The notes beneath the pieces were generated by a model. It saw only the letters and a list, made by a program, of their open reading frames with translations. It was not told where the DNA came from and made no database searches. From assembly GCF_048403405.1 (NCBI RefSeq), contig NZ_CP183129.1: DNA of 64,000 nucleotides; one strand, given 5' to 3'. This DNA comes from Escherichia coli (GTDB lineage Bacteria; Pseudomonadota; Gammaproteobacteria; Enterobacterales; Enterobacteriaceae). Below, one piece after another: positions 3,149-56,141 of this stretch. The number at the start of each line of letters is the position of its first letter. The stretch's first letter is position 1. A program made the translations under genes and the position numbers.

Positions 3149-4353
3149 TAATCCACCAATAATTCCAGCGCGCGGTCAACGGCATTCACCAGCGCATCCA
3201 CATCACTCTTTGTATTATATGGCGCAAAAGAGGCGCGCAGTGTGCCGGTTACGCCTAATTCTGCCAGTAGCGGCTGAGCGCAATGCTGCCCGGCGCGCAG
3301 GGCAATACCGTACTCCGCCAGCAGCGTCACCATATCGCTGTGATGAACGCCAGCAAAATCAAAGGCCAGCAGGCTGGAATCCTGGCAGCGAAATGAGCGG
3401 AAGCCAGGACGTTTTGCCAGCGCATCTTCCGCCAGCGTTGCTAAGCTACGGCTCCAGCTTTCTGCCTGGTTGATATCGTAATCTGCCAGCCATTCCAGCG
3501 CCGCGCTTAATCCTATGACACCAGCGACATTTGGCGTTCCGGCTTCCAGTTTCCACGGCGCAGATTGAGTCGTGAAGCCGTCAAAACTCACTTCGTGAAT
3601 CATTTTGCCGCCACCCAGCCAGGGTGACATCGCTTCCAGCAGTTCTGATTTGCCATACAGCACGCCGATACCCGTCGGGCCATACAGTTTGTGACCAGAG
3701 AAAGCATAGAAATCAATATCCAGTTGCTGAACATCTGCGGGGACATGCACCGCCCCCTGAGCACCATCAACCATCACCACCATCCCGGCTGAATGAGCAA
3801 AGGTAATCGCTCGCGCCAGATCCGGGCAACCGCCAGTGACGTTCGACATTTGTCCCAGAGCAAGAATTCGACTACGAGGTGTGATCAGTTCTGGCAACAA
3901 ATCGACATCCGGCAGTCGCTGCGCATTAAGCGGCAATTTCACCACTTTGGCTCCAGTTTGTTGGGCGACCATCAGCCAGGGGACGAGGTTGGCGTGGTGT
4001 TCTGCCACGCTGACAATAATCTCATCGCCCGGTTGCAGACGTGGACGCGCATAGCATTGTGCCACCATGTTGATGGATTCAGTGGTGCCGCGCGTCCAGA
4101 CGATAGTTTTGTCATCTGGTGCATTCAGTAATTGCGCCACTTTCTCTCGTGCAGCTTCATAACGCGCGGTCAGGCGTTGGGCTTCGGCAAACTGGCTGCG
4201 ATGGACGTTTCCGGCGCTCAGGCTGTAAAACTGTCGGGTGGCTTCAACCACGGCTTCAGGTTTAAGCGCGGTCGCGGCGCTGTCGAGATAGACGCCCGCA
4301 TCCTGAAGTGCGGGAAACTGGGCGCGAAACTGTGCGGGATTAAAAACGTTCAT
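3148..4353 (-). CDS. csdA: Cysteine desulfurase / sulfinate desulfinase CsdA (PLP-dependent)
   Basis: 401 aa starting [16 protein letters not shown]; PLP-lysine motif SGHKLYGP; start set at the internal ATG (4353) preceded by RBS gaggag rather than the TTG track start at 4389. Confidence 0.9.
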
Positions 4354-13812: not shown

Positions 13813-14001
13813 TTTTAATAGGGTTATAAAAAGAGAACTTGCGGTTATTTACTATGATTAGTTGAACCAGGTCACAAAATATAAGCTTGTGAATTTCTTT
13901 CTGGTTAATCAGGAAGAAGATGGTGGGTAATTAAACGGCTAATTCAATAGTGTGAAAGGAACAACATTATTGCCCTGTTTTGAATCAGAGAGAGGTAGCT
14001 A

Positions 14002-39721: not shown

Positions 39722-41035
<1,314 letters not shown>

Positions 41036-41060
41036 GTCTGACTTTATCTGATTTAAAAAT

Positions 41061-41085
41061 GCCAGCCTTCGGGCTGGCATTTTTT
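41061..41085. terminator. Bidirectional intrinsic terminator between convergent eno and ygcG
   Basis: gccagcc ttcg ggctggc hairpin flanked by A-rich run upstream and T run downstream (T/U run on both strands). Confidence 0.8.
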
Positions 41086-41094
41086 ATGGTTGAG

Positions 41095-41967
41095 TTACCA
41101 GCGACCGGACGCGCCGCCACCGCCAGAAGAACCGCCCCCGCCGCTAAATCCGCCGCCACTTGAGCCGCCACCGGAACCGCTGTTGTCTGAATGATAACTT
41201 CTACCAGATGCTTTTTTCTGAAGTACACATAAACAGGTAAAGACCATAATGGTGGTGAAAGTAAAAAAGAAGAAAAATACAGCAATGGAAAAAGTTTTAT
41301 CGGAGAACAGGAATAAATCTAAAAGATAGATTGCTGAAATACAGACACTGCTTTTACATGCGCGACAAAAATTACTGCCTTGATGAAAAAACCAGAAAGG
41401 GAAGAACATCACTGCAAATACCCAAAAAATAGCAAAGTAGTAATGATCGCTGGAAGACGCTGATTCACTTTCTGAAGGATTAGCCGAATATTGGTGTTGT
41501 GAAGTGAGTTGGTTATTCAAAGCGATTATAGCTAACTCTAATCCCTTAGCTAATTTTTGTTGTTTAAATGCGGGTATCATGTTGCTACGGATGATATCTC
41601 CAGCCAGAGCATCGGTTACCTTTTCTTCCAGCCCATAACCTACCTGGATGCGGACAGTACGATCCGACCAGGCAACAATGATCAGTATCCCATCATTGCG
41701 TTTGGCATCTCCTAAACGCCAATTGTTAAAAACCCTTGTAGCATATTGTTCAATTGTCTCGTCTTTGGTTGTGGGAATAATTAATACAGCAATTTGTACT
41801 TGGGTATTATTGAAAATAGATTCTAACTTCCGCGTCAGTTCTTTCTTTTCTTGTGAGTTTAAGCTACTCGTAAGATCCGTAACTTGTTGCTGTAATTGTG
41901 GGACAATAGTTGGTTGGGCTGCAACAAAGGAACACACGAATGTGAATATTAGTATGAAATAGCGCAT
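41095..41967 (-). CDS. ygcG: TPM-domain (TLP18.3/Psb32/MOLO-1 phosphatase-like) membrane protein YgcG
   Basis: Signal peptide [21 protein letters not shown] domain, TM segment, Gly/Ser-rich C-terminal tail ([27 protein letters not shown]); start set at the ATG at 41967 (290 aa), the track start at 42012 is also an ATG; AT-rich coding sequence. Confidence 0.8.
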
Positions 41968-42260
41968 TATAAATGTCCCATTAAAGCTGGATAAATAAAT
42001 TGACGGCGACATCGGTAATTTGAGATTCGTTATAATTAAAAACGAACACAGAAAAAATAAGTATAATTTTGGTGAATGTTTTTGACATGATTAAATCCAT
42101 TTGCTTTATTTATTTCTGACATAATACGTTACTCCCTTTTATTATTAACGATCTGTTTCTCATTTTTCTTTAAACCTGCCTGTAACAGAATGTTAATAAG
42201 ACATGATTGTTGCGGCAGGATCTGCAATAATTAACAATTATCCACTTCACAGAGAATGCT

Positions 42261-42932
42261 ATGCAGTACCCGATTAACGAGATGTTCCAGACCCTGCAAG
42301 GTGAGGGTTACTTTACCGGCGTCCCCGCCATTTTTATTCGTTTACAGGGATGCCCGGTTGGCTGTGCCTGGTGCGACACCAAACACACCTGGGAAAAGCT
42401 TGAGGATCGGGAAGTCTCCCTTTTCAGCATTCTGGCGAAGACCAAAGAGAGTGATAAGTGGGGGGCGGCGAGCAGTGAAGACTTGCTGGCTGTCATTGGT
42501 CGCCAGGGATACACCGCGCGGCATGTGGTGATTACGGGTGGTGAGCCTTGCATTCATGATTTGCTGCCACTGACTGACCTGCTCGAAAAGAACGGTTTTA
42601 GCTGCCAGATCGAAACCAGTGGTACTCATGAAGTACGCTGCACACCGAATACCTGGGTTACCGTATCGCCAAAGCTGAACATGCGCGGCGGCTATGAAGT
42701 GTTGTCACAGGCACTGGAGCGAGCCAACGAAATCAAGCATCCAGTGGGACGCGTGCGTGATATTGAAGCACTGGATGAACTACTGGCAACACTGACCGAT
42801 GATAAACCGCGAGTCATTGCGCTGCAGCCGATTAGCCAAAAGGAAGATGCTACTCGTTTATGTATCGATACGTGCATTGCGCGCAACTGGCGTTTGTCGA
42901 TGCAAACACATAAATATTTAAATATTGCCTGA
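42261..42932 (+). CDS. queE: 7-carboxy-7-deazaguanine synthase (radical SAM)
   Basis: 223 aa MQYPINEMFQTLQGEGYFTGVPAIFIRLQGCPVGCAWCDTKHTW... (CxxxCxxC-variant radical SAM motif). Confidence 0.95.
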   Translation: MQYPINEMFQTLQGEGYFTGVPAIFIRLQGCPVGCAWCDTKHTWEKLEDREVSLFSILAKTKESDKWGAASSEDLLAVIGRQGYTARHVVITGGEPCIHDLLPLTDLLEKNGFSCQIETSGTHEVRCTPNTWVTVSPKLNMRGGYEVLSQALERANEIKHPVGRVRDIEALDELLATLTDDKPRVIALQPISQKEDATRLCIDTCIARNWRLSMQTHKYLNIA

Positions 42933-43069
42933 TTAAACATTTATAAGCGTTATAAATGGGTGGAACCTGTAAAGACTTCTACTCATTTATATTCTTTGTC
43001 GCCTCTAAAAAACCTCCATTTTGCCCATCCTGGACTAATCATTATCATTTTCTACAAATTCTGTGGTGT

Positions 43070-43270
43070 TAATTTTTCGTTGGAGTGAAAATTATTGCGG
43101 TGAAATTTGGTAGATTTTAGTTTGAATAGAGTTATTTTAAATATTTATCTTTTTAATCAATGGATTAAATGCTCTTTAACATAATGGATGTGTTGTTTGT
43201 GTGATCCTGTAAAGTTGGTAGATTGTGACTGGCTTAAAAAATCATTAATTAATAATAGGTTATGTTTAGA
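43070..43270 (+). promoter_or_regulatory. CRISPR leader (AT-rich, promoter and spacer-acquisition signals)
   Basis: About 200 bp AT-rich sequence ending ...aatcattaattaataataggttatgtttaga directly abutting the first repeat; degenerate repeats lie at the opposite end of the array, fixing polarity; left boundary approximate. Confidence 0.55.
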
Positions 43271-44031
43271 GTGTTCCCCGCGCCAGCGGGGATAAACCGC
43301 GTTCAGCGTTGCTGGGCTGCGCAATGGACTGGTGTTCCCCGCGCCAGCGGGGATAAACCGCGGAGTTTTCACGGAACGCACAGCGAATTATGGTGTTCCC
43401 CGCGCCAGCGGGGATAAACCGCCGATAAATTTTCGCCCCGTTTCCAGCGCCGCGTGTTCCCCGCGCCAGCGGGGATAAACCGTTCAAACTGTAGGGATCG
43501 GCAATGGTGCCGAAGTGTTCCCCGCGCCAGCGGGGATAAACCGGGGCATTAGAATAACTTAAATGGAAAAAGAAAGTGTTCCCCGCGCCAGCGGGGATAA
43601 ACCGTCAGCCAGCACATAATTTTTATAGTCAGTATTGTGTTCCCCGCGCCAGCGGGGATAAACCGAAAGAGGTTATCGAGCGATATAACGCGTCCATGTG
43701 TTCCCCGCGCCAGCGGGGATAAACCGGTGCCTGGCGTCCATCTATTCACATGCCGCGCGTGTTCCCCGCGCCAGCGGGGATAAACCGTATTGGCGACGAT
43801 GGCATACCAGGACTACTCCGTGTTCCCCGCGCCAGCGGGGATAAACCGGCTCAGCGTCTGCTCTGGTGCCTCGCCCGTGAGTGTTCCCCGCGCCAGCGGG
43901 GATAAACCGGACCGTTACGGGCGCGTTCTTGGACTTGTTGAGTGTTCCCCACATCAGCGGGGATAAACCGGACACAGAGCGCCGCTATAGCGCCTATGCC
44001 AAGAGTTTCCCGCACCAGCGGGAATAAACCA
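43271..44031 (+). CRISPR. Type I-E CRISPR array: 13 repeats of 29 bp, 12 spacers of 32 bp (the queE-ygcE array of E. coli)
   Basis: Repeat GTGTTCCCCGCGCCAGCGGGGATAAACCG at 43271, 43332, 43393, 43454, 43515, 43576, 43637, 43698, 43759, 43820, 43881, then degenerate copies at 43942 (gtgttccccacatcagcggggataaaccg) and 44003 (gagtttcccgcaccagcgggaataaacca); exact 61-bp period. Confidence 0.97.
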
Positions 44032-44500
44032 CCATATAACCCGTTATCTCTTTCTCAAGTTTTTATATTAGCTGTACTTGTAATAAGCAACATATCCACG
44101 TAACACCTCATGTTCAAAATAGTTCTCCATGTCAGAGAAGTTCACAATTATCGATACAAAAAATTAAATTTAATCAAAGTGTTATTTGTATGATTCTTAA
44201 ATCGTTAAGAAATTTTAATCTATTATTTTTTTAATATTGAATTAATGCCTGTTAATTTTTTCTTTAGAATAACAGTGTGTTTTTTAAGCTTGTTATTCAT
44301 TGATTAAGTAATAAATCTGGAAGTTTGTCTTTGTTTTGAGGCTAATGAGTGGTTTTACATAACCGTCTCTATAGGCTGTTGATGAATAGTTCTTATGAAT
44401 AAAGATATCCAGTTCATACTTTAAATGAAAATTGATAAAGTACGGTTTGCGTTGTCTTTTATTCTAAAGACATCGAGTGTAGTTAATATTCCTTGTAAAA

Positions 44501-44623
44501 ACAGGGATAAACCGAACTAGTTAAAGTTTTTATTATGTTCCCTGCATCAGCGGGGATAAACCGGACTTGTTATCATTTTTTAAGTTGTCGAACTTATGTT
44601 CCCCACGTCAGCGGGGATAACCA
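44501..44623 (+). CRISPR. Decayed satellite CRISPR array (truncated repeat, two degenerate repeats, one 32-bp spacer)
   Basis: Partial repeat cagggataaaccg (ends 44514), degenerate repeats atgttccctgcatcagcggggataaaccg (44535-44563) and atgttccccacgtcagcggggataacc (44596-44623) separated by a 32-bp spacer; preceded by about 470 bp of AT-rich leader-like sequence. Confidence 0.8.
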
Positions 44624-44669
44624 TTCAGGTATGTTCAGGCCGGGCAGTTTCCCGCCCGGTCTTCCTCAC

Positions 44670-46148
44670 TTACGCATTCGACCAGCTCTGGATCGAATCC
44701 GCATTCCCCAATTCCCCATGCATCACTTCATACGATTTTTTCAGGATTACATCAGTATGTTTGGTTAACTCCTTGAAAATGCCTTTATTCATCGCGTTGT
44801 AGCGTTTGGCGTTGCTCTCAACAGGCATAAAGATATCTTTCACGCGAACCATTTTGTCGACAGCCGTTGCGTAATCCGGGTATAGCCCCAGACCTACCGC
44901 CGTATTAATCGCTGCCCCCAGGCTTGCACAACCATTAATGGCGTTACGGCGTGCCGGAAGGTTGAACACGTCGGCAAAAATCTGCATAAACAGATCGCTG
45001 TTCGAACCGCCGCCAGTAATGATCACATGCTTTGCAAAGTGATTCATTTCATTACACATATTGTCGTAATTGTTCTTCAGCGTCAGCGCCACGCTTTCCA
45101 GTATCGAACGATATATCCATGCGTAATCCATGCTGGAATCAAAGCCAATCATAATCCCGCGTTTGTACGGTTCCCACGGATTGGTCAGCCAGTCCAGCAC
45201 CGTCATCAGACCATTACAGCCTGGCGGCACACAAGACGCTTTTTTGTTGAGCAAATCTTCCGGTGAAAGATCCTGTGCTTTGGCATCCTGAATTAACGAC
45301 TCGCCTAACATGTCGCGTAGCCAGCTCACCGTCCACATGCCTTTGCGAATACCGTAACCTTCATACAGCAAGGTTTGCGGAATAGAAGACATAATCGGCC
45401 AGTACGCTACCGGATCTTTCGGTAGTAATTTGCCGTTCATCATCAACGCGATGTAAGTGCCAAGAGAAATTACCGCAGTTTCATCATCCAGTAACCCGGC
45501 TCCCAGTGCTTCTACCGGTTTATCACTGGTGGTACAAACAACCGGCAGCCCAGCCGGGAAATGTGTCGCCAGCGCGGCTTGAGGAGTGATATGCCCAAGA
45601 ACAGTGCCCGGCATTTGCACATCAAACAGCATATGACGGGGGATATTAAACTTCTCCATGACTGCGGCATCTTCACTCCATGCCCAGGTCTTATAATCCA
45701 CCGGCCACTGACCAAAATAGTTGGCGATATTGTCTTTAAACTCGCCGGTTAAGCGATGCGTCAGATAACCCGAAAAAGAGGTGACATATGCCACGTCAGG
45801 ATTCGTATGTTCGTAAGGGCGTGTAACGCGTGCATCCTGCCAGCTAATCAACGGCGCAGCTGGCGTGCCATCGGCTTTCAATAACGCACGGCAGCAACGG
45901 ATGGATCCCAGACCAATACCGACAATATCTTCTTTATTTCCGGCAAACTGACTCATCAAATCGTGACCGGCAAAGCATAATGATGCCCATAAATCGTCGT
46001 CAGGATGTTCTGCGGTATCGGCATCTGGCGTGTGCATCGGCTGCAATAAGCCTTTGCCTTCGCAAACCACATTACCTTCCAGATCGTACATCACCACTTT
46101 TGTGCTCTGACTTCCACCATCAATCCCTATGATGTATTTTTTCGACAT
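44670..46148 (-). CDS. ygcE: FGGY-family carbohydrate kinase (uncharacterised substrate)
   Basis: 492 aa MSKKYIIGIDGGSQSTKVVMYDLEGN...; FGGY sugar kinase fold; matches YgcE. Confidence 0.88.
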   Translation of the reverse strand: MSKKYIIGIDGGSQSTKVVMYDLEGNVVCEGKGLLQPMHTPDADTAEHPDDDLWASLCFAGHDLMSQFAGNKEDIVGIGLGSIRCCRALLKADGTPAAPLISWQDARVTRPYEHTNPDVAYVTSFSGYLTHRLTGEFKDNIANYFGQWPVDYKTWAWSEDAAVMEKFNIPRHMLFDVQMPGTVLGHITPQAALATHFPAGLPVVCTTSDKPVEALGAGLLDDETAVISLGTYIALMMNGKLLPKDPVAYWPIMSSIPQTLLYEGYGIRKGMWTVSWLRDMLGESLIQDAKAQDLSPEDLLNKKASCVPPGCNGLMTVLDWLTNPWEPYKRGIMIGFDSSMDYAWIYRSILESVALTLKNNYDNMCNEMNHFAKHVIITGGGSNSDLFMQIFADVFNLPARRNAINGCASLGAAINTAVGLGLYPDYATAVDKMVRVKDIFMPVESNAKRYNAMNKGIFKELTKHTDVILKKSYEVMHGELGNADSIQSWSNA

Positions 46149-46174
46149 GATTTTTCTCCTGTAATTTTCTGGAC

Positions 46175-47452
46175 TTACTTGCTGCTAGCCATAGCAGGGG
46201 CGCTATCAGCAGTACGAATTTTTTGGAACAGCAAAAAGGTAAAGACGATCACCATGGCAAGCGCCGCCATGCCCATCAGCCACATATTGCGGTAGGCTTC
46301 TGCAGCGGGCAGGGTGTCTTGCCAGTAGCCGATAATCGGGTAAACGAAGACATCCGGCAGGAATCCAATCACCGAACAAATACCTACCGTGGTGCCCATA
46401 ATGTAAGACGGTGTTCTCGCTTCGCCAGGGCAGGCCCAGTACAGCCCGCGTGAGGCGTAACAGGTGAATCCCAGCAGTAAAATCAGGCCAATCCCCATCG
46501 CGACCGATTGCGGGTTAGAGTTCGTGACGAGCAGGGCAGTTAACGCCAGCAAGCCGAGTACGGAAAGGATTTGGATCACGCGGGTAGGGGATTTCACTTT
46601 GCTGTAGGTGGAGATAATGCCACCAAGTGGGCCGCACAGTGCGCGGAAGATTTTGTTGATCACAATCCCCATGTAGCTCGCCGCCACCAGCGACATGCCG
46701 TACATTTCGGTCAGATAGTTGGTGGAGTAACTCAGAATGGCGTAGATGGTGAAGACACCAAAAATCACCATGCTGCAATACCAGGTGGTGCTGATGCGCA
46801 AAACAGCCAGGATGTCGCTAAGCTGGAATGACTGTTTTTCTTCGTTATTGGTATTGCGCAGGTTGTTGTTATCGCTAACAAAAAACCAACACAAAATGCC
46901 CAGCAGAATGTAAACCACACTATAGATAATAATGACCGTTTTCAGGCTGGCGCTGTCATCCGGTGCAAAGCGAGAAAAGACCCACATGGTAAACACCGCC
47001 AGCGACATTACACCGACGCCGCGCAGCCCTTCCATCCAGCCCATAATTTTCCCTTGCTCGCTATGATCGCCCAGCAACGAGGCGGCTTTAATCGACACCG
47101 ACCACAGCATTAAAATCGTCGTTATCGCAAAGGCGACCTGAATACAGAGCATTACCCACAGCGGTGGATATGTTGCCATTAACAGACCCAGTAATCCGGT
47201 AATGATCATCGCGGAAGTAATCATTTTGCGGTGTGAAAATTTATCGGCAATAACGCCGCTGGGGGCATAAAGAATAATAGCCGCAATACCAAAGGTACTC
47301 ATTATTAAACCTATCTCGGTATTGCTGAATCCCATAAATTTCGCCATGGGAATTTGATAAATATAACGTAAATAAGCCAGGTCGAAACTAACGCCGCCGC
47401 TAAAACTAATTATCGCGAGGGTTATCCAACGGCGATATGAGTTGTGTTGCAT
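46175..47452 (-). CDS. yqcE: MFS transporter (uncharacterised)
   Basis: 425 aa, 12 predicted TM helices; matches YqcE. Confidence 0.88.
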   Translation of the reverse strand: MQHNSYRRWITLAIISFSGGVSFDLAYLRYIYQIPMAKFMGFSNTEIGLIMSTFGIAAIILYAPSGVIADKFSHRKMITSAMIITGLLGLLMATYPPLWVMLCIQVAFAITTILMLWSVSIKAASLLGDHSEQGKIMGWMEGLRGVGVMSLAVFTMWVFSRFAPDDSASLKTVIIIYSVVYILLGILCWFFVSDNNNLRNTNNEEKQSFQLSDILAVLRISTTWYCSMVIFGVFTIYAILSYSTNYLTEMYGMSLVAASYMGIVINKIFRALCGPLGGIISTYSKVKSPTRVIQILSVLGLLALTALLVTNSNPQSVAMGIGLILLLGFTCYASRGLYWACPGEARTPSYIMGTTVGICSVIGFLPDVFVYPIIGYWQDTLPAAEAYRNMWLMGMAALAMVIVFTFLLFQKIRTADSAPAMASSK

Positions 47453-47629
47453 ATCGTATTCCCATTTGTAATAGACAAAAAAAGAGAAAAGTAAGCCGCC
47501 CTTTCAGGTGGATTACTTTTCTCAGGTCTCTAGTAATTGCAATAAGAAATAACATGGAAAGTAGTGGTGTTGTGTGAGAGTAATCACGCTTCTGCTTTTT
47601 AAAATTATTTGACAATTCGAATATCACAC

Positions 47630-47645
47630 TGTGATTACGATCACA
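47630..47645. promoter_or_regulatory. Consensus CRP binding site upstream of ygcW
   Basis: TGTGAttacgaTCACA, perfect match to both CRP half-sites, centred about 130 bp upstream of the ygcW start; candidate -10 (tatgat / gataaa, 47662-47670) places it near a class II position. Confidence 0.65.
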
Positions 47646-47698
47646 TTAGCGATTATGCCCTTATGATAAAAATTATCTCCAGTTACCAGAGATAATGA

Positions 47699-47743
47699 GA
47701 AAGGTAACTTCCCTCTCGCGGGGGAAGTTACCTTTCTTTTTTT
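47699..47743 (+). terminator. Strong intrinsic terminator inside the ygcW 5' leader (candidate antitermination target)
   Basis: Perfect 15-bp stem gaaaggtaacttccc / gggaagttacctttc (47699-47713 and 47722-47736), 8-nt loop, then TTTTTTT (47737-47743), ending 24 nt before the ygcW ATG. Confidence 0.75.
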
Positions 47744-47767
47744 GCCTTACGGAAATTGGAGCTAACT

Positions 47768-48553
47768 ATGTCAATCGAATCTCTCAATGCGTTCTCAATG
47801 GATTTTTTCTCCCTGAAAGGTAAAACCGCAATTGTTACCGGCGGGAATAGCGGTTTAGGCCAGGCATTTGCCATGGCGCTGGCCAAAGCAGGCGCAAATA
47901 TCTTTATTCCAAGCTTCGTTAAAGATAACGGCGAAACAAAGGAAATGATTGAAAAACAGGGTGTTGAGGTGGACTTCATGCAGGTGGATATCACCGCAGA
48001 AGGCGCGCCGCAGAAGATAATCGCCGCCTGTTGCGAACGTTTCGGTACCGTCGATATTCTGATTAACAATGCCGGTATTTGTAAGCTGAATAAGGTGCTG
48101 GACTTCGGTCGTGCCGACTGGGACCCGATGATTGATGTGAACCTGACCGCCGCATTCGAGTTAAGCTATGAAGCTGCAAAAATTATGATCCCGCAGAAAA
48201 GCGGTAAAATCATTAATATCTGTTCATTATTCTCTTACTTAGGTGGACAATGGTCACCTGCATATTCTGCCACTAAACATGCTCTTGCCGGGTTCACCAA
48301 AGCTTATTGTGATGAACTAGGTCAATATAATATTCAGGTAAATGGTATTGCTCCGGGATATTACGCTACCGATATCACTCTGGCGACCCGTAGTAATCCA
48401 GAAACTAACCAGCGCGTTCTTGATCATATTCCGGCAAACCGTTGGGGCGATACTCAGGATTTAATGGGCGCAGCCGTATTCCTCGCAAGTCCGGCATCGA
48501 ATTATGTCAACGGACATTTATTAGTGGTTGATGGCGGTTATTTAGTGCGCTAA
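47768..48553 (+). CDS. ygcW: Short-chain dehydrogenase/reductase (SDR), uncharacterised
   Basis: Start at ATG 47768 (MSIESLNAF..., RBS ggag 7 nt upstream); NAD(P)-binding motif TGGNSGLG and catalytic YxxxK (YSATK); track start is an upstream TTG. Confidence 0.88.
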   Translation: MSIESLNAFSMDFFSLKGKTAIVTGGNSGLGQAFAMALAKAGANIFIPSFVKDNGETKEMIEKQGVEVDFMQVDITAEGAPQKIIAACCERFGTVDILINNAGICKLNKVLDFGRADWDPMIDVNLTAAFELSYEAAKIMIPQKSGKIINICSLFSYLGGQWSPAYSATKHALAGFTKAYCDELGQYNIQVNGIAPGYYATDITLATRSNPETNQRVLDHIPANRWGDTQDLMGAAVFLASPASNYVNGHLLVVDGGYLVR

Positions 48554-48622
48554 TCCATAACGGTGGTTTCTGTTTTCTCTTATTAATGATTATTCCATTT
48601 TTATTATCAGGAAGGAATTACT

Positions 48623-50077
48623 ATGTCTTTATCTCGCGCAGCGATTGTCGACCAGCTAAAGGAAATTGTTGGTGCAGATCGCGTAATTACCGATGAAACA
48701 GTATTAAAGAAGAACAGTATTGACCGTTTTCGCAAATTTCCGGATATTCATGGCATTTATACTTTGCCGATTCCGGCAGCGGTCGTAAAACTCGGTTCCA
48801 CAGAACAAGTATCCCGTGTGCTGAATTTTATGAATGCGCACAAAATTAACGGTGTGCCGCGTACCGGTGCTTCCGCTACCGAAGGTGGGCTGGAAACCGT
48901 TGTGGAAAACTCGGTGGTGCTCGACGGCTCTGCCATGAATCAAATCATTAATATTGATATTGAGAATATGCAGGCCACGGCGCAATGCGGAGTTCCGCTG
49001 GAAGTGCTGGAAAACGCGTTGCGTGAAAAAGGTTACACCACGGGGCATTCTCCGCAGTCAAAGCCGCTGGCGCAGATGGGCGGCCTGGTAGCAACCCGCA
49101 GTATCGGGCAGTTCTCCACACTCTACGGCGCAATCGAAGATATGGTCGTTGGTCTGGAAGCAGTATTGGCTGATGGCACCGTAACACGCATTAAAAACGT
49201 ACCACGCCGCGCGGCAGGCCCGGACATTCGTCACATCATCATCGGCAACGAAGGTGCATTGTGCTATATCACTGAAGTAACAGTGAAAATCTTTAAGTTC
49301 ACCCCGGAAAACAACCTCTTCTACGGCTATATCCTGGAAGACATGAAAACCGGCTTCAACATCCTGCGTGAAATCATGGTGGAAGGGTATCGTCCGTCGA
49401 TCGCTCGTTTGTATGACGCTGAAGATGGCACCCAACACTTCACCCATTTTGCCGACGGAAAATGCGTGCTGATCTTTATGGCTGAAGGTAACCCTCGCAT
49501 TGCGAAGGCGACGGGCGAAGGGATTGCTGAAATCGTGGCACGTTACCCGCAATGCCAGCGAGTGGACAGCAAGCTGATCGAAACCTGGTTTAACAACCTG
49601 AACTGGGGACCGGATAAAGTAGCTGCCGAACGTGTGCAGATCCTCAAAACCGGCAACATGGGCTTTACCACCGAAGTGTCCGGCTGCTGGAGCTGCATTC
49701 ACGAAATCTACGAAAGCGTTATTAACCGTATTCGTACCGAGTTCCCGCACGCCGACGACATCACCATGCTGGGCGGTCACTCCTCTCATAGCTATCAGAA
49801 CGGCACCAACATGTACTTCGTCTACGACTACAACGTCGTTGACTGTAAGCCGGAAGAGGAAATCGACAAGTACCACAATCCGCTCAACAAAATCATCTGC
49901 GAAGAAACCATTCGCCTCGGTGGTTCGATGGTGCACCACCACGGCATTGGTAAACATCGCGTTCACTGGAGCAAGCTGGAACACGGCAGCGCGTGGGCGT
50001 TGCTGGAAGGGCTGAAAAAGCAGTTCGATCCTAACGGCATTATGAATACGGGTACTATCTATCCGATTGAAAAATAA
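48623..50077 (+). CDS. ygcU: FAD-linked oxidase (alkyldihydroxyacetonephosphate-synthase / D-lactate dehydrogenase-like)
   Basis: 484 aa; FAD-binding PCMH-type domain; matches YgcU. Confidence 0.88.
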   Translation: MSLSRAAIVDQLKEIVGADRVITDETVLKKNSIDRFRKFPDIHGIYTLPIPAAVVKLGSTEQVSRVLNFMNAHKINGVPRTGASATEGGLETVVENSVVLDGSAMNQIINIDIENMQATAQCGVPLEVLENALREKGYTTGHSPQSKPLAQMGGLVATRSIGQFSTLYGAIEDMVVGLEAVLADGTVTRIKNVPRRAAGPDIRHIIIGNEGALCYITEVTVKIFKFTPENNLFYGYILEDMKTGFNILREIMVEGYRPSIARLYDAEDGTQHFTHFADGKCVLIFMAEGNPRIAKATGEGIAEIVARYPQCQRVDSKLIETWFNNLNWGPDKVAAERVQILKTGNMGFTTEVSGCWSCIHEIYESVINRIRTEFPHADDITMLGGHSSHSYQNGTNMYFVYDYNVVDCKPEEEIDKYHNPLNKIICEETIRLGGSMVHHHGIGKHRVHWSKLEHGSAWALLEGLKKQFDPNGIMNTGTIYPIEK

Positions 50078-50170
50078 TGTGTCAGGCAGCGTTCCGCGAT
50101 GACGGAGCGTTGCCTTTTCGGCTTCTCAGGCGAGAAGCCGTTCTTATTACCGGACAATGAAGGGGTAAAG

Positions 50171-51508
50171 ATGAACACTTCACCGGTGCGAATGGATGAT
50201 TTACCGCTTAACCGTTTTCACTGTCGAATTGCTGCGCTCACTTTCGGCGCACACCTGACCGACGGTTATGTTCTCGGCGTCATTGGTTACGCCATTATTC
50301 AGCTTACGCCCGCCATGCAACTGACGCCGTTAATGGCGGGAATGATTGGCGGCTCGGCGCTCCTTGGTTTGTTTCTTGGCAGCCTGGTTCTTGGATGGAT
50401 CTCCGACCATATTGGTCGGCAAAAAATCTTCACCTTCAGCTTTTTGCTGATTACGCTCGCTTCGTTTTTACAATATTTTGCCACCACGCCAGAGCATCTT
50501 ATAGGACTACGCATTTTGATTGGCATTGGTCTGGGAGGCGATTACTCAGTAGGTCACACTTTGCTGGCTGAATTTTCTCCGCGCCGCCATCGCGGTGTTT
50601 TGCTGGGCGCATTCAGTGTGGTGTGGACCGTAGGCTATGTGCTGGCAAGTATTGCCGGACATCACTTTATTACCGAAAGCCCGGAGGCCTGGCGCTGGCT
50701 GCTGGCATCAGCGGCGTTACCAGCCTTGCTGATTACGCTGCTACGTTGGGGAACGCCAGAATCGCCACGCTGGCTACTGCGCCAGGGGCGTTTTGCAGAA
50801 GCTCACGCTATCGTGCATCGCTACTTTGGTCCCCATGTTTTACTGGGCGATGAAGTGGCAACGGCGACCCATAAACACATCAAAACCTTGTTCTCTTCGC
50901 GCTACTGGCGGCGCACGGCGTTTAACAGCGTCTTCTTTGTCTGCCTCGTAATCCCATGGTTTGTGATTTACACCTGGCTGCCAACTATCGCGCAAACTAT
51001 TGGTCTGGAAGATGCGCTGACAGCTAGCCTGATGCTTAATGCGTTGTTAATTGTGGGCGCGCTGCTGGGATTAGTTCTGACGCACCTGCTGGCACATCGC
51101 AAATTTTTGCTGGGAAGTTTTTTGCTGCTGGCGGCAACGCTGGTAGTGATGGCCTGTTTGCCTTCCGGTAGTTCATTAACGCTGCTGCTTTTTGTTCTCT
51201 TCAGCACCACCATTTCGGCAGTCAGTAATCTGGTGGGCATTTTGCCTGCGGAAAGTTTTCCTACTGACATTCGCTCGCTGGGCGTCGGTTTTGCCACCGC
51301 CATGAGTCGGTTGGGCGCGGCAGTAAGTACGGGCCTGCTGCCGTGGGTGCTGGCGCAGTGGGGAATGCAAGTCACCTTATTGCTCCTGGCGGCAGTGTTG
51401 TTGGTTGGTTTTGTCGTGACCTGGCTATGGGCACCAGAAACCAAAGCACTCCCGCTGGTGGCGGCGGGAAATGTAGGAGGTGCGAATGAACATTCTGTTA
51501 GCGTTTAA
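50171..51508 (+). CDS. ygcS: MFS transporter (sugar-porter-like, uncharacterised)
   Basis: Start at ATG 50171 (MNTSPVRMDDLPL..., RBS aggggt); 12 TM MFS protein; the track start is 24 codons upstream. Confidence 0.85.
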   Translation: MNTSPVRMDDLPLNRFHCRIAALTFGAHLTDGYVLGVIGYAIIQLTPAMQLTPLMAGMIGGSALLGLFLGSLVLGWISDHIGRQKIFTFSFLLITLASFLQYFATTPEHLIGLRILIGIGLGGDYSVGHTLLAEFSPRRHRGVLLGAFSVVWTVGYVLASIAGHHFITESPEAWRWLLASAALPALLITLLRWGTPESPRWLLRQGRFAEAHAIVHRYFGPHVLLGDEVATATHKHIKTLFSSRYWRRTAFNSVFFVCLVIPWFVIYTWLPTIAQTIGLEDALTASLMLNALLIVGALLGLVLTHLLAHRKFLLGSFLLLAATLVVMACLPSGSSLTLLLFVLFSTTISAVSNLVGILPAESFPTDIRSLGVGFATAMSRLGAAVSTGLLPWVLAQWGMQVTLLLLAAVLLVGFVVTWLWAPETKALPLVAAGNVGGANEHSVSV

Positions 51509-52265
51509 AGCCGAACCGGATGCCGGAATGCTGGCGGAAAAAGAGTGGCAGGCGGCGGCTCAGGGTAATAGCGGACCGGATGTTTCGCTTCTGCTAAGTT
51601 TACTCGGTGCTGATGAACAGGCTGCCGCCGCGCTGCTGTTGGCGCAGAGAAAAAACGGTACGTCGATGTCTTTAACCGCGTTGAGCATGGGGAATGAACG
51701 GGCGTTGCACTGGCTGCGCTATCTCATGGCTCTTGGGTTTGAGGAAGCTGTATTGCTGGAGACGGCGGCAGATCTGCGCTTTGCGCCGGAATTTGTCGCT
51801 CGCCATATTGCCGAATGGCAGCGTCAGAATCCGCTGGATCTGATAATTACCGGCTGCCAAAGCAGCGAAGGGCAGAATGGGCAAACGCCATTTTTGCTGG
51901 CGGAAATGCTGGGCTGGCCCTGCTTCACCCAGGTGGAGCGTTTCACTCTCGACGCGCCGTTTATCACCCTCGAACAGCGTACTGAACATGGGCTGCGCTG
52001 TTGCCGGGTTCGCTTGCCTGCGGTGATTGCCGTGCGTCAGTGTGGTGAAGTGGCCTTGCCAGTACCGGGAATGCGCCAGCGAATGGCTGCGGGGAAAGCA
52101 GCAATTATCCGTAAAACTGTTGCTGCCGAATCGCCAGCGATGCAGTGTCGGCAACTGGCAAGAGCAGAGCAACGACGCGGAGCGACGCTGATTGATGGGC
52201 AAACGGTAGCAGAAAAAGCGCAAAAGCTATGGCAGGACTATTTACGCCAAAGGATGCAGCCATGA
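51486..52265 (+). CDS. ygcR: Electron-transfer flavoprotein beta-subunit paralog (FixA-like)
   Basis: MNILLAFKAEPDAGMLAEKEW...; ETF-beta-like; start ATG 51486 with RBS aggagg; overlaps ygcS 3' end by 23 nt. Confidence 0.82.
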   Translation: MNILLAFKAEPDAGMLAEKEWQAAAQGNSGPDVSLLLSLLGADEQAAAALLLAQRKNGTSMSLTALSMGNERALHWLRYLMALGFEEAVLLETAADLRFAPEFVARHIAEWQRQNPLDLIITGCQSSEGQNGQTPFLLAEMLGWPCFTQVERFTLDAPFITLEQRTEHGLRCCRVRLPAVIAVRQCGEVALPVPGMRQRMAAGKAAIIRKTVAAESPAMQCRQLARAEQRRGATLIDGQTVAEKAQKLWQDYLRQRMQP

Positions 52266-53122
52266 ATATCGCAATTGTGACAATAAATCAGGAGAATGCC
52301 GCAATAGCGAGCTGGCTGGCAGAACAGGATTTCAGCGGTTGTACCCTGGCACACTGGCAGATTGAACCTCAGCCCGCTGTGGCGGAACAGGTACTGGATG
52401 CGCTGGTGGAACAGTGGCAGCGAACGCCTGCGGACGTTGTTATCTTTCCGCCGGGAACGTTTGGCGATGAACTGTCGACCCGGCTGGCCTGGCGTTTACA
52501 TGGTGCAAGCATCTGCCAGGTGACTTCGTTAGATATTCCAACCGTAAGCGTGCGCAAATCCCACTGGGGAAATGCGCTAACGGCGACGCTGCAAACAGAA
52601 AAACGCCTGCTATGCCTTTCCCTGGCGCGTCAGGCGGGAGCAGCGAAAAACGCCACGTTGCCCTCTGGTATGCAGCAACTGAACATTGTCCCAGGTGCGC
52701 TTCCCGACTGGCTGGTTAGCATAGAGAATCTGAAAAATGTTAGCCGCGACCCATTAGCTGAAGCCAGACGGGTGCTGGTGGTGGGGCAGGGCGGAGAGGC
52801 AGATAACCAGGAAATCGCTATGCTGGCAGAAAAGCTGGGAGCCGAAGTGGGCTACAGTCGGGCGCGAGTGATGAACGGTGGCGTTGATGCTGAAAAAGTG
52901 ATTGGTATTTCCGGACATCTGCTGGCACCTGAGGTGTGCATTGTTGTTGGCGCTTCCGGCGCAGCAGCGTTAATGGCGGGCGTACGCAATAGCAAGTTTG
53001 TGGTGGCGATTAATCATGACGCCAGCGCGGCGGTATTTTCACAGGCAGATGTTGGCGTGGTTGATGACTGGAAAGCGGTGCTGGAGGCACTGGTGACAAA
53101 CATTCACGCAGATTGCCAATAA
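52262..53122 (+). CDS. ygcQ: Electron-transfer flavoprotein alpha-subunit paralog (FixB-like)
   Basis: MNIAIVTINQENAAIASWLAEQ...; ETF-alpha-like; ATGA overlap with the ygcR stop. Confidence 0.82.
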   Translation: MNIAIVTINQENAAIASWLAEQDFSGCTLAHWQIEPQPAVAEQVLDALVEQWQRTPADVVIFPPGTFGDELSTRLAWRLHGASICQVTSLDIPTVSVRKSHWGNALTATLQTEKRLLCLSLARQAGAAKNATLPSGMQQLNIVPGALPDWLVSIENLKNVSRDPLAEARRVLVVGQGGEADNQEIAMLAEKLGAEVGYSRARVMNGGVDAEKVIGISGHLLAPEVCIVVGASGAAALMAGVRNSKFVVAINHDASAAVFSQADVGVVDDWKAVLEALVTNIHADCQ

Positions 53123-53170
53123 CGTGTTGCCGGATGATCCTGCCGATGGTTCTGGGCTGGGGATTTGTAA

Positions 53171-53204
53171 GCCTGATAAGACGCGTCAAGCGTCGTATCA
53201 GGCG
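53171..53204. repeat. REP element (part of a BIME-like cluster spanning about 53125-53235) between convergent ygcQ and ygcP
   Basis: gcctgataagacgcgtcaagcgtcgtatcaggcg palindrome flanked by further partial REP copies (gccggatg..., gtcggatgtggcgtg...). Confidence 0.7.
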
Positions 53205-53268
53205 CTGAATGTCGGATGTGGCGTGCAGCCTACAAATCACACAAATTCAATTCGTTACGATTATCCCG

Positions 53269-53844
53269 TCAAAGCAATTTTTTCGCTAGCGTCCAGACCC
53301 CGGTATTCGTGGTGGAAAGCGCCACAACACCCGCGTTAATCGCATTACGCGCATCTTCTTCATCGCACACCAGCCCGCCGGCAATCAGCGGTTGGCGGAT
53401 TTTCTCCGTCACCCAGCCCAGCACTTTGGGCATACAGCCTGGCAGGATCTCAATACAATCCGGATTCGATTGCGCAACTTGCTTATCAATGTTGTGAAAC
53501 GAAATCGAATCAACAATAAACAGGCGATGAATACAGAAAAAACCTTCCGCTCTTGCTGCTTTCAGCATCGATGCTTTCGTGCTGATAATGCCGTCCGCCT
53601 CAGTCACCAGTTTCAAAAACTGAATCACCACTTCTTTATTTGACGCGCCTTCCAGCAAATCAACATGAATAAAAGCATATTTTCCGGCGTTCTTAATCTT
53701 TTTAACGATATTACTGATGGTGCAGATATTGCCGTACAACACGGAAATAAACTGGCATTCAGAGTCGATTGCCAGTTGCAGGCTGGCATTATCTTTAACG
53801 GCAGCAATCACCGGATTCTGGCGGAGCAGGTGTAAGAGGGGCAT
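53269..53844 (-). CDS. ygcP: GlpP-like glycerol-3-phosphate-responsive transcription antiterminator family protein
   Basis: 191 aa MPLLHLLRQNPVIAAVKDNASLQLAIDSECQFISVLYGNICT...; resembles the B. subtilis GlpP antiterminator family. Confidence 0.85.
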   Translation of the reverse strand: MPLLHLLRQNPVIAAVKDNASLQLAIDSECQFISVLYGNICTISNIVKKIKNAGKYAFIHVDLLEGASNKEVVIQFLKLVTEADGIISTKASMLKAARAEGFFCIHRLFIVDSISFHNIDKQVAQSNPDCIEILPGCMPKVLGWVTEKIRQPLIAGGLVCDEEDARNAINAGVVALSTTNTGVWTLAKKLL

Positions 53845-53860
53845 AAATTATCCTTATTAT

Positions 53861-54121
53861 TTATCCAAAACGGTAGGTGATGCCGAATCCGGAAGGCGGA
53901 TAGCGCCACTGTTGTAGTGTTGATTCGTCGCACAGCAAACGGCAGGTGCCACACTCCAGGCAGCCGCGATAATCAACGCGTAAGTCACCTTCCGGTGTGA
54001 GCGAAAAAAGACCAGCCGGACAAGCGTTAATCAACCGTTGTACCGTCTGACGCTCAACGGAGTCAGCCGGAACAATGTGCGGCGCATCGGCAACGCGCCA
54101 GAGATTACGGGCTACAGACAT
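53861..54121 (-). CDS. ygcO: Ferredoxin-like protein (FixX-like)
   Basis: 86 aa from the ATG at 54121 (MSVARNLWRV...); Cys cluster CxxCxxC (CLECGTCRLLC); track ORF extends upstream. Confidence 0.8.
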   Translation of the reverse strand: MSVARNLWRVADAPHIVPADSVERQTVQRLINACPAGLFSLTPEGDLRVDYRGCLECGTCRLLCDESTLQQWRYPPSGFGITYRFG

Positions 54122-55383
54122 CGCAGACTCCTGATAACATCGCCCGCCAGATGCCACAGGCCGTGACGACGTAAATGACGCCAGAATAACTGGCGCAGCG
54201 GTGGAACAGGTTTATCACCCTGATCCCATAAATCACGGGAAATATCCTGCATTAACGCAGGCCATGCACGGTACCATCCAGGGCGTTGCAAAAGCGCCGG
54301 AACATGCTGATAACGTTGTAGAACATCCCATAGCAGGCTGCGCTCTATGTTGTGATGATAAAGCGCAAACAGATTTTGCGGCTCGCGGTGCTGGCAGGCG
54401 CTTATCAGCGTTTGTGCCGCCGCCTGCGCGCCAGTCAGCGCCATATCCATGCCGCGCACGGAAATTCCGGTATTGACGCAACTGCGCAACGCATCGCCCA
54501 GCAGCAGCCAGCCGTTACCGGCGTATTGCACCGGCATACTGTGCAAGCCACCTTCTGGCACCAGATGCGCACCATACTCCAGTGATTCCGTGTTTTTGAT
54601 AAGCGGGCGCACTGCCGGATGCGTTTTAAAGCGAGCCAGCAGCTCGCTTGCCGGAACACGACTTTGCGTAAGGGAAGAGAGCGGGCAAACAATCCCTAAC
54701 GAGAGCGTTTGTTGATTAGTATAAAGAAATGTGCCGCCGGGTAAGTCATCACAGATCCTGCCGCTGAACAGCAACGCTGCGCCTTCGTTATTCTCCAGAT
54801 GAAAACGTTCTTCAATAGCGGATGTTTCCAGCGACAGCACTTCTTTGATCCCCAACGCCATCGCTTCGCCAGCAGGACGAGTCACTAACCCGTGACGTTC
54901 AGCCAGGACGCTGTTGGCACCTTCTGCCAGCACCACATAACGGGCGCGGAGAATATCGTCACCACAAATGACACCACACACCCTGCCGTTTTCTTCATAC
55001 AGCGCATCCACCGTCGCACCAGGGATGCATTCGACACCTTCTTTTTCGGCTTCGGCAACCAGCCACGGATCGAACCGTGCACGTAATACGCTCCAGGATT
55101 CACCGCCGGGCTGTAAGCTGGAAAACGTCGTTGCGCCATCCGGCGTTAACAGGGAAAGGCTTTCGTGAGTGATGCGTCGTTCAAGAGGCGCGGTCAGATG
55201 AAATTGTGGGAGGAGTTCCGCGAGCGCATGGGTGTATAAACGCCCGCCGGAAAGGTTTTTACTGCCGGGAATTTCAGCTCGTTCCAGTAACAGAACGGAC
55301 AAACCTGCCCGCGCGCAGCGTAAAGCACAAGCGGTGCCTGCTATACCCGCACCAATAATAATAATGTCGCAGTCGTCTTCCAT
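54112..55383 (-). CDS. ygcN: FAD-dependent oxidoreductase (FixC / ETF-quinone oxidoreductase-like)
   Basis: FAD-binding motif IIIIGAGIAG near the N-terminus; start uncertain (ATG at 55383 or 55395, GTG at 55413). Confidence 0.82.
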   Translation of the reverse strand: MEDDCDIIIIGAGIAGTACALRCARAGLSVLLLERAEIPGSKNLSGGRLYTHALAELLPQFHLTAPLERRITHESLSLLTPDGATTFSSLQPGGESWSVLRARFDPWLVAEAEKEGVECIPGATVDALYEENGRVCGVICGDDILRARYVVLAEGANSVLAERHGLVTRPAGEAMALGIKEVLSLETSAIEERFHLENNEGAALLFSGRICDDLPGGTFLYTNQQTLSLGIVCPLSSLTQSRVPASELLARFKTHPAVRPLIKNTESLEYGAHLVPEGGLHSMPVQYAGNGWLLLGDALRSCVNTGISVRGMDMALTGAQAAAQTLISACQHREPQNLFALYHHNIERSLLWDVLQRYQHVPALLQRPGWYRAWPALMQDISRDLWDQGDKPVPPLRQLFWRHLRRHGLWHLAGDVIRSLRCL

Positions 55384-55460
55384 GTCGTGCCCCATATATC
55401 CAGAGCGCAACACCCTAACATAGCGTTACTTAAGGGAAATTGACCGCCGACACACTCTTA

Positions 55461-55826
55461 TCATTCGCCGCGATAGATGCAACCTGCGGTGCAGGTTTCT
55501 TTCACCATAACCGCACTTAACAGCGGAACAACCGGTTTAACCTGATCCCAAATCCATTTTGCTAAAACCTCGCTGGTCGGGTTTTCCAGGCCAGGAATAT
55601 CATTGAGATAATAGTGATCGAGGCGCTCGTAGGTTGGCTTAAACGCCGCTTTTAGTTCAGCGAAATCGATAATCCAGCCCGTATGCGGATCGACTTCCCC
55701 GGTAATTTCCAGTCGCACCATAAAGGAATGCCCGTGCAGGCGACCACATTTATGCCCTTCCGGGACGTGTGGTAAGCGGTGAGCGGCTTCGAAGGTGAAA
55801 TCTTTAAATAACGTGGTGGACATCAT
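55461..55826 (-). CDS. queD: 6-carboxy-5,6,7,8-tetrahydropterin synthase
   Basis: 121 aa [35 protein letters not shown]... matches QueD; track ORF extends 28 codons upstream. Confidence 0.93.
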
Positions 55827-56141
55827 AATTTCTCTACATGACGATAAAACCGCCGTAGAGTACCGGAAAGGCTGTTTTTTCGCATTATCTAAAACGACTT
55901 TGTTGCGCAAAATCGCTGATTTATCTTAATGATTGGCTAAATTCATTTGTTTTTCATTGGGTTGGTTAATCTGTTTTGTTGTTAAAGACTATTGCTAAAA
56001 CAGGTTAGTCGATTTGGTTATTAGTTATCGCTATCCCGTCTTTAATCCACACCGTTCACCCCGTTAACCTTACCTTCTCTTCTGTTTTATGGGCGCTGAC
56101 AGGGCGCAGAAACAGCTTTGCTTACTGGAACATAACGACGC

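Follow-up and report, generated by a model that had tools for sequence, protein, structure and literature searches.

The divergently transcribed genes yqcE and ygcW are found in a 64,000-nucleotide (64-kb) stretch of Escherichia coli DNA from contig NZ_CP183129.1, hereafter the window, and are separated by an intergenic region of 315 bp that carries an RNA leader for each gene. In the RefSeq record of strain K-12 the genes queE, a CRISPR (clustered regularly interspaced short palindromic repeats) array, ygcE, and yqcE are located on one strand and ygcW-ygcU-ygcS-ygcR-ygcQ on the other, followed by the converging genes ygcP-ygcO-ygcN. The products of ygcWUSRQ are a KduD-like short-chain dehydrogenase/reductase (SDR), a GlcD-like flavin adenine dinucleotide (FAD) oxidase, a major facilitator superfamily (MFS) transporter, and the beta and alpha subunits of an electron transfer flavoprotein (ETF). 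An ETF-oxidoreductase-like protein is another partner of this target module, which has two MFS transporters in total. All of the target proteins score under the curated family cut-offs of NCBIfam, and these names describe sub-threshold resemblances only. Literature searches for the function of the ygc genes yielded nothing useful. The evidence presented below makes it probable that both operons are activated by the cAMP receptor protein (CRP) from class II positions and are controlled by antitermination that depends on YgcP. The coordinates of the features are collected in the table.

Table. Features of the yqcE/ygcW leaders and associated genes in window coordinates.
Feature	Position	Strand	Remarks
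CRP site 1, perfect palindrome TGTGATTACGATCACA	47630-47645		centre 47637.5; predicted at -41.5 of ygcW promoter; ~100 nt upstream of yqcE leader motif
CRP-like site 2, TGTGAGAGTAATCACG	47573-47588		1 mismatch; centre 47580.5; predicted at ~-41.5 of yqcE promoter (minus strand)
Putative extended -10, ygcW promoter	TG 47664-65, TAAAAA 47667-72	+	predicted start ~47679
Putative extended -10, yqcE promoter	TG 47554-53, TATTTC 47551-46	-	predicted start 47539 or 47538
ygcW leader RNA, ~65 nt, = ecr2774	47679-47743	+	RNA-seq, Term-seq, covariance model
Antiterminator 5' strand AGUUACC	47681-47687	+	pairs with 47703-47709
Antiterminator loop AGAGAUAAUGAGAAA	47688-47702	+	two invariant GAG triplets; proposed YgcP site (putative binding)
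Antiterminator 3' strand GGUAACU	47703-47709	+	within terminator 5' arm
ygcW intrinsic terminator	hairpin 47697-47738; U-run 47737-47743	+	fold, conservation, Term-seq
yqcE leader RNA, ~63 nt, = ecr2775	47539-47477	-	twin of ygcW leader
yqcE antiterminator	AUUACU 47537-47532 with AGUAAU 47517-47512	-	twin leader
yqcE terminator	hairpin 47523-47484; U-run (U7) 47483-47477	-	25 nt before yqcE ATG
ygcW	47768-48553	+	
yqcE	46175-47452	-	
Operon ygcW-ygcU-ygcS-ygcR-ygcQ	47768-53122	+	putative operon structure; proposed as regulated
Operon yqcE-ygcE	44670-47452	-	MFS transporter and FGGY-family kinase; proposed as regulated
ygcP	53269-53844	-	putative RNA-binding antiterminator of the GlpP family (PF04309); proposed to regulate both leaders

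The terminator hairpin before ygcW has 19 pairs when G-U pairs are included, with 16 perfect Watson-Crick pairs. The hairpin has a calculated energy of about -31 kcal/mol, and the surrounding 130 nt give a z-score of -6.4 relative to shuffled sequences. It is by far the strongest terminator-like site of the 11-kb cluster, and a terminator scan of this cluster found no strong sites inside the ygcW-ygcQ operon. An earlier reading of the window, made from the sequence alone, had reported this hairpin and a T-run that ends 24 nt before the start codon of ygcW. Both are real, but the ATG is located at 47768 and not at 47769. This start is used by RefSeq and by homologues (261 aa) and is preceded by GGAG 8 nt upstream. 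The program-made list of open reading frames opens ygcW at TTG 47756 (265 aa) and not at ATG 47768. The two hairpins have nearly identical stem bases, GAGAAAAGUAA...UUACUUUUCUC in yqcE and GAGAAAGGUAA...UUACCUUUCU in ygcW. The terminator helix is 92% paired over 48 distinct leaders, and 6 pairs are changed on both sides. The lengths of the U-runs depend on the strain, with 7 and 7 Ts in the window and 9 and 8 in K-12.

Short RNAs that correspond to both leaders have been published. Romero et al. 2014 (PMC4681348, Table S5) list ecr2774(u+) of 73 nt upstream of ygcW and ecr2775(u+) of 63 nt upstream of yqcE, each on the strand of its gene, and catalogue them as abundant candidate small RNAs (sRNAs). 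In the Term-seq data of Adams et al. 2021 (PMC7815308, supplementary file 3; lysogeny broth (LB), optical density (OD) 0.4), where a score of at least 3 suggests intrinsic termination, a 3' end 38 nt upstream of ygcW has 40,640 reads and an intrinsic score of 15.8, and a 3' end 36 nt upstream of yqcE has 1,557 reads and a score of 11.4. Rho dependence is given as 'No' for both, and no regulatory element is noted for either (PMC7815308). From the short RNAs and the Rho-independent 3' ends it follows that transcription begins upstream of both hairpins and stops there under non-inducing conditions. A start site downstream of the ygcW hairpin would have spoken against the sequence-only reading, and the published 73- and 63-nt RNAs instead start upstream and end at the hairpins. 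As in GlpP-type systems, an intrinsic terminator is thus located between the start site and the start codon in both leaders.

The abundance of these RNAs in LB and their listing as candidate sRNAs are also compatible with a simpler arrangement. The hairpins could be constitutive attenuators or the 3' ends of trans-acting sRNAs ecr2774 and ecr2775, with expression of the genes set by CRP and leaky read-through only. A hairpin followed by a U-run is the usual Hfq-binding module. This alternative is considered improbable; a constitutive attenuator leaves unexplained a covarying antiterminator helix with an invariant GAG loop, terminator mismatches that fall exactly at the antiterminator-pairing positions, and the strict linkage to ygcP homologues, all of which are described below. 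A trans function of the short RNAs could coexist with control in cis.

The consensus CRP palindrome reported in the sequence-only reading is present and exact, and TGTGATTACGATCACA is the sole exact match to TGTGA-N6-TCACA in the 64-kb window. Binding to this site has been published both in vivo and in vitro. It was predicted in 2007 (PMC1794230), was occupied in vivo in a chromatin immunoprecipitation sequencing (ChIP-seq) study of the enterotoxigenic E. coli (ETEC) strain H10407 (PMC4287617), and was bound in vitro with an estimated dissociation constant of 1.7 nM, in a study that counts it among the 'novel' sites and assigns it to ygcW/yqcE (PMC12871828). CRP-like site 2 is separated from the ATTACT motif of the yqcE leader by 43.5 nt, and this distance recurs at the loci of Citrobacter, Klebsiella, Enterobacter, and Raoultella. 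The leaders selected with a strict pattern were scanned for CRP-like sites with two mismatches or fewer, and the distance was measured to the first base of the leader motif. A site centred 42.5-45.5 nt upstream of the motif was detected in all 26 proteobacterial leaders (43.5-44.5 nt in 24 of them) and in none of the six Firmicute leaders. A conserved (R)TGnTAnnn block, CATGTTATTTC for the yqcE promoter, appears between the CRP site and the motif, and its distance from the motif does not vary among the leaders. The window reads T-A at 47667, within the putative promoter region, where K-12 has C.

Activation by CRP from a class II position places the centre of the site at -41.5. Addition of 41.5 to the centre of site 1 at 47637.5 gives a start at 47679 for ygcW, and subtraction of 41.5 from the centre of site 2 at 47580.5 gives 47539 for yqcE. 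The published 5' ends map to about 47678 for ecr2774 and about 47539 for ecr2775, in agreement with the starts derived from the CRP sites. The 2014 coordinates were carried over to the window with an offset of 1,977 bp, which we take to be the difference between two versions of the MG1655 genome. Both promoters would therefore have class II geometry, with the CRP centres 41.5 nt from the predicted starts, and both leader RNAs would begin 2-3 nt before the antiterminator motif.

The motif [A/G]UUAC[C/U] occurs in each leader, some 15 nt upstream of the terminator, and is complementary to [G/A]GUAA[C/U] in the 5' arm of the terminator. The conservation of this pairing was determined with leaders from a wider set of genomes. 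Nineteen proteobacterial YgcP homologues were aligned, 80 loci were retrieved with one genome per species, and leaders were identified by a regular-expression scan and then with a covariance model built from 48 distinct leaders. Two alignments were used, A3 being a MAFFT alignment of the 48 leaders and A4 an alignment of 95 distinct rows fitted only to the terminator model. The antiterminator helix is paired in 83.6% of cases in A3 and in 88.5% in A4; control helices slid along the alignment gave 11-55% overall and 16-55% in A4, and none of 500 shuffles reached the observed value. A3 misplaces six leaders that have an insert of 3-4 nt after GTTACT, and A4 corrects some of these. The paired percentages are underestimates because several of the insert-bearing rows are misaligned. 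Compensatory changes are found in A4 at two positions, with G-C in 57 and A-U in 27 leaders at one and U-A in 60 and C-G in 23 at another. Other stem variants with G-U and G-C pairs appear in Listeria (AGUUGCU/AGCGACU) and in a metagenome-assembled genome of the Enterobacteriaceae (AGUUGCC/GGCGACU).

The loop of the antiterminator has the consensus AGAGA-N3-4-GAGAAA, and both GAG triplets are invariant in A3 and A4. The second triplet (GAGAAA) doubles as the base of the terminator stem. The column of C47708 lacks a partner in the terminator of 36 of the 48 leaders but has one in the antiterminator; this base is therefore constrained by the antiterminator rather than by the terminator. The calculated energies are -6.7 kcal/mol for the antiterminator and -31.0 kcal/mol for the terminator of ygcW, and -1.4 and -20.5 kcal/mol, respectively, for those of yqcE. 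The minimum-energy fold of the nascent ygcW RNA up to position 47722 is the antiterminator. A weak antiterminator opposed to a strong terminator is the pattern of a default-off switch, in which a protein would be required to hold the weak hairpin. The leaders thus carry a conserved element that overlaps the terminator, as in GlpP-type systems, and the comparative data point to this element as a candidate protein site.

The sequence-only reading had proposed an alternative antiterminator/terminator layout and a comparison of leader orthologues for covariation. A competing structure does exist, and covariation was found, but in a different helix (47681-47687 with 47703-47709) from the one proposed. 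That reading had favoured a small hairpin, UUAUCUC/GAGAUAA (47673-47695), which abuts the terminator and which would be the structure stabilised by YgcP. The perfect 7-bp inverted repeat is indeed present (47673-47679 with 47689-47695), both in the strain of the window and in K-12, but it is not conserved. Over the 48 leaders 35% of the cells are paired, which equals the controls (34.7% when shuffled and 32-44% when slid), and the repeat is missing from the yqcE twin leader. Its 5' arm is located at or upstream of the predicted start at about 47679 and therefore would not be part of the transcript. The small hairpin would also be unable to prevent termination because it does not overlap the terminator. 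A role for this hairpin is almost certainly excluded by these results. The true antiterminator 5' strand comes from the segment that had been taken as the loop of the small hairpin.

Two further candidates were rejected. For attenuation by a leader peptide, the AUG at 47695 opens a reading frame but is not conserved, and UGAG, AGAG, GGAG, or CGAG stands at this position in other leaders. For a bidirectional terminator of converging genes, the flanking genes diverge, and the U-run of each hairpin is on the gene side only. The reverse strands of both hairpins score about 40 bits lower with the covariance model.

In the 64-kb window the covariance model identified the element at 47476-47550 on the minus strand (84.9 bits, E = 4e-16) and at 47669-47746 on the plus strand (78.1 bits, E = 1e-14). 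No third copy was found in the window, where the next non-self match has E = 2.3. The leader element fits no described family of Rfam 15. A scan of 40000-58000 with permissive filters gave no match with E ≤1 in 47400-47800, and the element is without annotation in the RefSeq genomes of E. coli. By BLAST, the median number of locations of the 65-nt element in an E. coli genome was two, and none was on a plasmid. The 351 bases around the leaders are 100% identical to those of strain ETEC1738 and 96.9% identical to those of the K-12 derivative JM109, and the same region is present in 5,045 of 5,426 complete E. coli genomes.

Beyond E. coli, the covariance model gave 102 matches with E ≤1e-6 in 65 sources, and most loci had two. 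Held-out loci of Vibrio, Photobacterium, Budvicia aquatica, Halobacillus, Gracilibacillus, Salibacterium, and Geosporobacter were recovered with E = 1e-9 to 1e-7. At the loci examined the element always precedes a ygcW-, yqcE-, ygcU-, or ygcE-like gene and is beside a ygcP homologue. The distance to that homologue is 10 kb or less in the Enterobacterales, Vibrionaceae, and Firmicute loci, and ygcP is linked to the element in all of those examined that have ygc-like genes. The regulator gene is thus linked to the target leaders, as in GlpP-type systems. The genes ygcP, ygcW, ygcU, and ygcE travel together; identities to the E. coli proteins are 62-93% for YgcW and 57-89% for YgcU, even in Firmicutes. 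Firmicutes such as Geosporobacter, Listeria sensu lato, Halobacillus, and Gracilibacillus share this core of four proteins with E. coli at 51-77% identity, which suggests that the enzymes, the regulator, and the RNA element were transferred horizontally together. A different form was observed in Limnobaculum eriocheiris (locus 13876-13961), where a single hairpin of the ygc type, bordered by A9 and T9 on opposite sides, is located between divergent genes and has no GTTAC..AGAGA antiterminator part. It looks like a bidirectional-terminator version of the element.

The proposed regulator YgcP had been related to GlpP-type antiterminators in the sequence-only reading, and comparisons with Pfam and PDB bear this out. 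Residues 12-184 match positions 1-173 of 173 of the Pfam family PF04309 (G3P_antiterm) with E = 1.6e-62, and this is the sole significant Pfam domain in the protein. YgcP also matches PDB entries 3KTS (E = 1e-27) and 1VKF (E = 8e-15), both registered there under the name of glycerol uptake operon antiterminator proteins. None of the curated NCBIfam models matches YgcP.

The leaders are best described as two back-to-back modules that would share one design, in which a CRP site at -41.5 and an extended -10 element precede a start 2-3 nt ahead of the antiterminator motif and a leader of about 65 nt. The default state would be off. The nascent leader would first fold as the weak antiterminator with its loop of 14-15 nt and two GAG triplets. 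Once the 3' arm has been transcribed, the more stable terminator would displace this hairpin, transcription would stop at the U-run, and the short RNAs would be released. YgcP with a bound effector may bind the GAG-rich loop and clamp the antiterminator helix. With the helix clamped, two segments of the terminator 5' arm would be hidden, GAGAAA at its base and GGUAACU in its middle, and the polymerase could then enter ygcWUSRQ and yqcE-ygcE. In this two-layer design expression would require both cAMP-CRP as the catabolite signal and YgcP with its ligand as the substrate signal. The effector is presumably a phosphorylated metabolite, either the product of the YgcE kinase or glycerol-3-phosphate itself. 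The target set, with uptake, phosphorylation, and flavin-linked oxidation, parallels the glp genes, and the effector may thus be the YgcE product instead of glycerol-3-phosphate, although this preference is speculation.

Several points weigh against this mechanism. The start sites come from one RNA-seq study and from our own mapping between genome versions. The covariation concerns two variable positions of a 7-bp helix in related sequences, and the shuffle control ignores phylogeny. The yqcE antiterminator, at the energy given above, is very weak alone. To our knowledge, the RNA-binding mode of the GlpP family has yet to be seen in a solved complex. The resemblance to the leader of Bacillus subtilis glpD, described below, was judged by eye and was not scored. 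The Term-seq 3' ends are found 3-6 nt inside the 3' arms of the hairpins and not at the end of the U-run, which is tentatively attributed to 3' trimming. The northern probe listed for ecr2775(u+) (PMC4681348, Table S9) has no match in the 64-kb window with up to 3 mismatches, and the published northern blot therefore cannot be tied to the yqcE leader. The literature search found no paper that connects YgcP with the ygc leaders and no experiment that ties the two together, and the papers it retrieved that name ygcP are silent on its function.

This silence of the literature, together with the presence of two mutually exclusive conserved structures, would also fit leaders that act as riboswitches, where the RNA itself binds a metabolite and YgcP is uninvolved. 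A sensor made up of a 7-bp hairpin and a purine loop of 15 nt, with a total length of about 30 nt, would be far simpler than known aptamers, and, as noted above, the element has no Rfam match with E ≤1. Across phyla the element is found only beside genes of an RNA-binding antiterminator family, and the homologous system of B. subtilis requires the protein, since a glpP deletion strain is not induced. A riboswitch is thus regarded as very unlikely.

Control by CRP together with antitermination by YgcP remains the preferred interpretation. It had been put forward in the sequence-only reading, and the comparative and published transcriptomic support for it is strong; the role of YgcP itself is what we infer. 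The regulon given there, ygcW-ygcU-ygcS-ygcR-ygcQ, is included in the present one but is incomplete, since the divergent operon yqcE-ygcE bears the twin element. Because the same RNA signature adjoins GlpP-family genes from E. coli to relatives of Bacillus, a protein-controlled read-through switch for a sugar or polyol pathway has most likely gone unrecognised in E. coli. A wider proposal is offered tentatively, at slightly below even odds: the GAG-repeat hairpin overlapping a terminator may be an undescribed cross-phylum motif and the general recognition element of the GlpP/YgcP family, and a separate YgcP subfamily of Enterobacterales, Vibrionaceae, and many Firmicutes may use it to control the horizontally transferred module of ygcW-ygcU-ygcE with transporter and ETF genes. 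The signal would then be a phosphorylated metabolite different from glycerol-3-phosphate, the YgcE product.

About ten adjacent y-genes of the best-studied bacterium (ygcN-ygcW, yqcE, and ygcE) have no assigned substrate or regulation. The proposed switch would join an orphan strong CRP site, two unexplained abundant short RNAs, and an antiterminator gene annotated by homology into one circuit with predictions at the nucleotide level. If the wider proposal is correct, E. coli K-12 has a second, unrecognised class of protein-dependent antitermination, and the switch might provide a handle on the substrate of these genes. The GlpP family would gain a defined RNA signature, absent from Rfam, that could be used to annotate regulons across phyla. 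A YgcP-dependent leader might serve as a reporter in screens for the inducer and, like the glpD leader of B. subtilis, as a compact portable expression switch.

Other features of the locus were also recorded. The CRISPR array between queE and ygcE occupies positions 43270-44039 and 44534-44632 of the window and consists of 13 repeats GTGTTCCCCGCGCCAGCGGGGATAAACCG with a spacing of 61 bp, followed by two degenerate copies; the K-12 record also annotates a CRISPR between these genes. In the convergent spacer of ygcQ and ygcP a sub-threshold Rfam match to naRNA4/CssrE, a REP (repetitive extragenic palindromic)-derived RNA, was obtained at 53171-53203 on the minus strand (28.4 bits, with the gathering score at 59.5); this site is probably REP-like. 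Strain 510016 of E. coli (locus 3248-4019) has an IS1 element directly next to ygcW and lacks the CRISPR, ygcE, yqcE, and nearly the whole intergenic region with both leaders; its ygcR is frameshifted. The ygc cluster is decaying in some strains, of which 510016 is an example.

The leaders were compared with known systems. The RNAs ecr2774(u+) and ecr2775(u+) of Romero et al. 2014 and the unannotated 3' ends that Adams et al. 2021 list for 5' untranslated regions (UTRs) are the same molecules as the terminated leaders. Those listings differ from the present account in that no function is given and no link is made to YgcP, an antiterminator, or CRP. The B. subtilis proteins TRAP and HutP, oligomeric readers of spaced GAG/UAG/NAG triplets, offer a likeness in the spaced, invariant GAG triplets; the ygc leaders have two of these and the glpD leader three to four. 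Ligand-loaded HutP also blocks formation of a terminator. TRAP and HutP belong to other protein families, however, and TRAP promotes termination, whereas YgcP is proposed to prevent it. The ygc leaders have only two triplets, displayed in a hairpin loop, and the resemblance is a lead.

Antitermination that depends on BglG at the terminator of the bgl leader is classical in E. coli. For this reason the statement in the sequence-only reading that the mechanism is not established for any E. coli operon holds for the GlpP type but is too broad as it stands. In the BglG/SacY/LicT systems of E. coli bgl and B. subtilis sac and lic, with their ribonucleic antiterminator (RAT) elements, a weak antiterminator also shares sequence with the 5' arm of a leader terminator, and an RNA-binding protein under control of the substrate stabilises it, the part proposed here for YgcP. 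The fold of YgcP is unrelated, with a G3P_antiterm domain only and no CAT or PRD domains, and the YgcP system is therefore not a member of the RAT family. Control would presumably be exerted by a small ligand and not by phosphorylation through the phosphotransferase system (PTS), and the ygc RNA has a GAG-rich loop in place of the internal loops of the RAT.

The closest relation is to GlpP of B. subtilis and its targets glpD, glpFK, and glpTQ. The 5' UTR of glpD, a validated GlpP target (PMC9604022, Table S4), contains ...CGGUCC UGAGAUGAGGAGA GACCACAGCACC..., followed by a terminator. Judged by eye, its layout of GGUC-CUGAGAUGAGGAGA-GACC, with the 3' strand opening the terminator arm, resembles that of the ygc leaders, and the fold of the nascent glpD RNA is the GGUC/GACC hairpin. 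Deletion of glpP abolishes induction, and the glpD 5' UTR alone confers glycerol control on foreign promoters (PMC9604022); a review states that GlpP bound to glycerol-3-phosphate binds the antiterminator. The same layout and GAGA..GAGA loop, again by eye, appear at glpP loci of clostridia and Lachnospiraceae with the unrelated stems GCUAU/AUAGC, CGCU/AGCG, UCGUUU/AAACGA, and AUUGCA/UGCAAU, in front of glycerol-3-phosphate oxidase-like and glycerophosphodiesterase genes.

The ygc and GlpP systems have in common the regulator family PF04309, a regulator gene that adjoins its targets, and a catabolite layer on top. They also share the order of a promoter, a hairpin with a GAGA..GAG(G/A)AGA loop, a 3' strand that starts a strong terminator, and then the gene. 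They differ in the stems (GUUAC/GUAAC in ygc and GGUC/GACC in glpD) and in the catabolite regulator, which would be CRP at class II positions in E. coli and is CcpA in B. subtilis. The ygc targets are not glp genes but encode the KduD-like SDR, the GlcD-like FAD oxidase with the ETF, the FGGY kinase, and the MFS transporters. Genes for glycerol or glycerol-3-phosphate utilisation are thus not among the targets, a feature that defines the glp regulon rather than the mechanism. The GlpP-type mechanism was already known from B. subtilis; the RNA signature and the proposed regulon are new.

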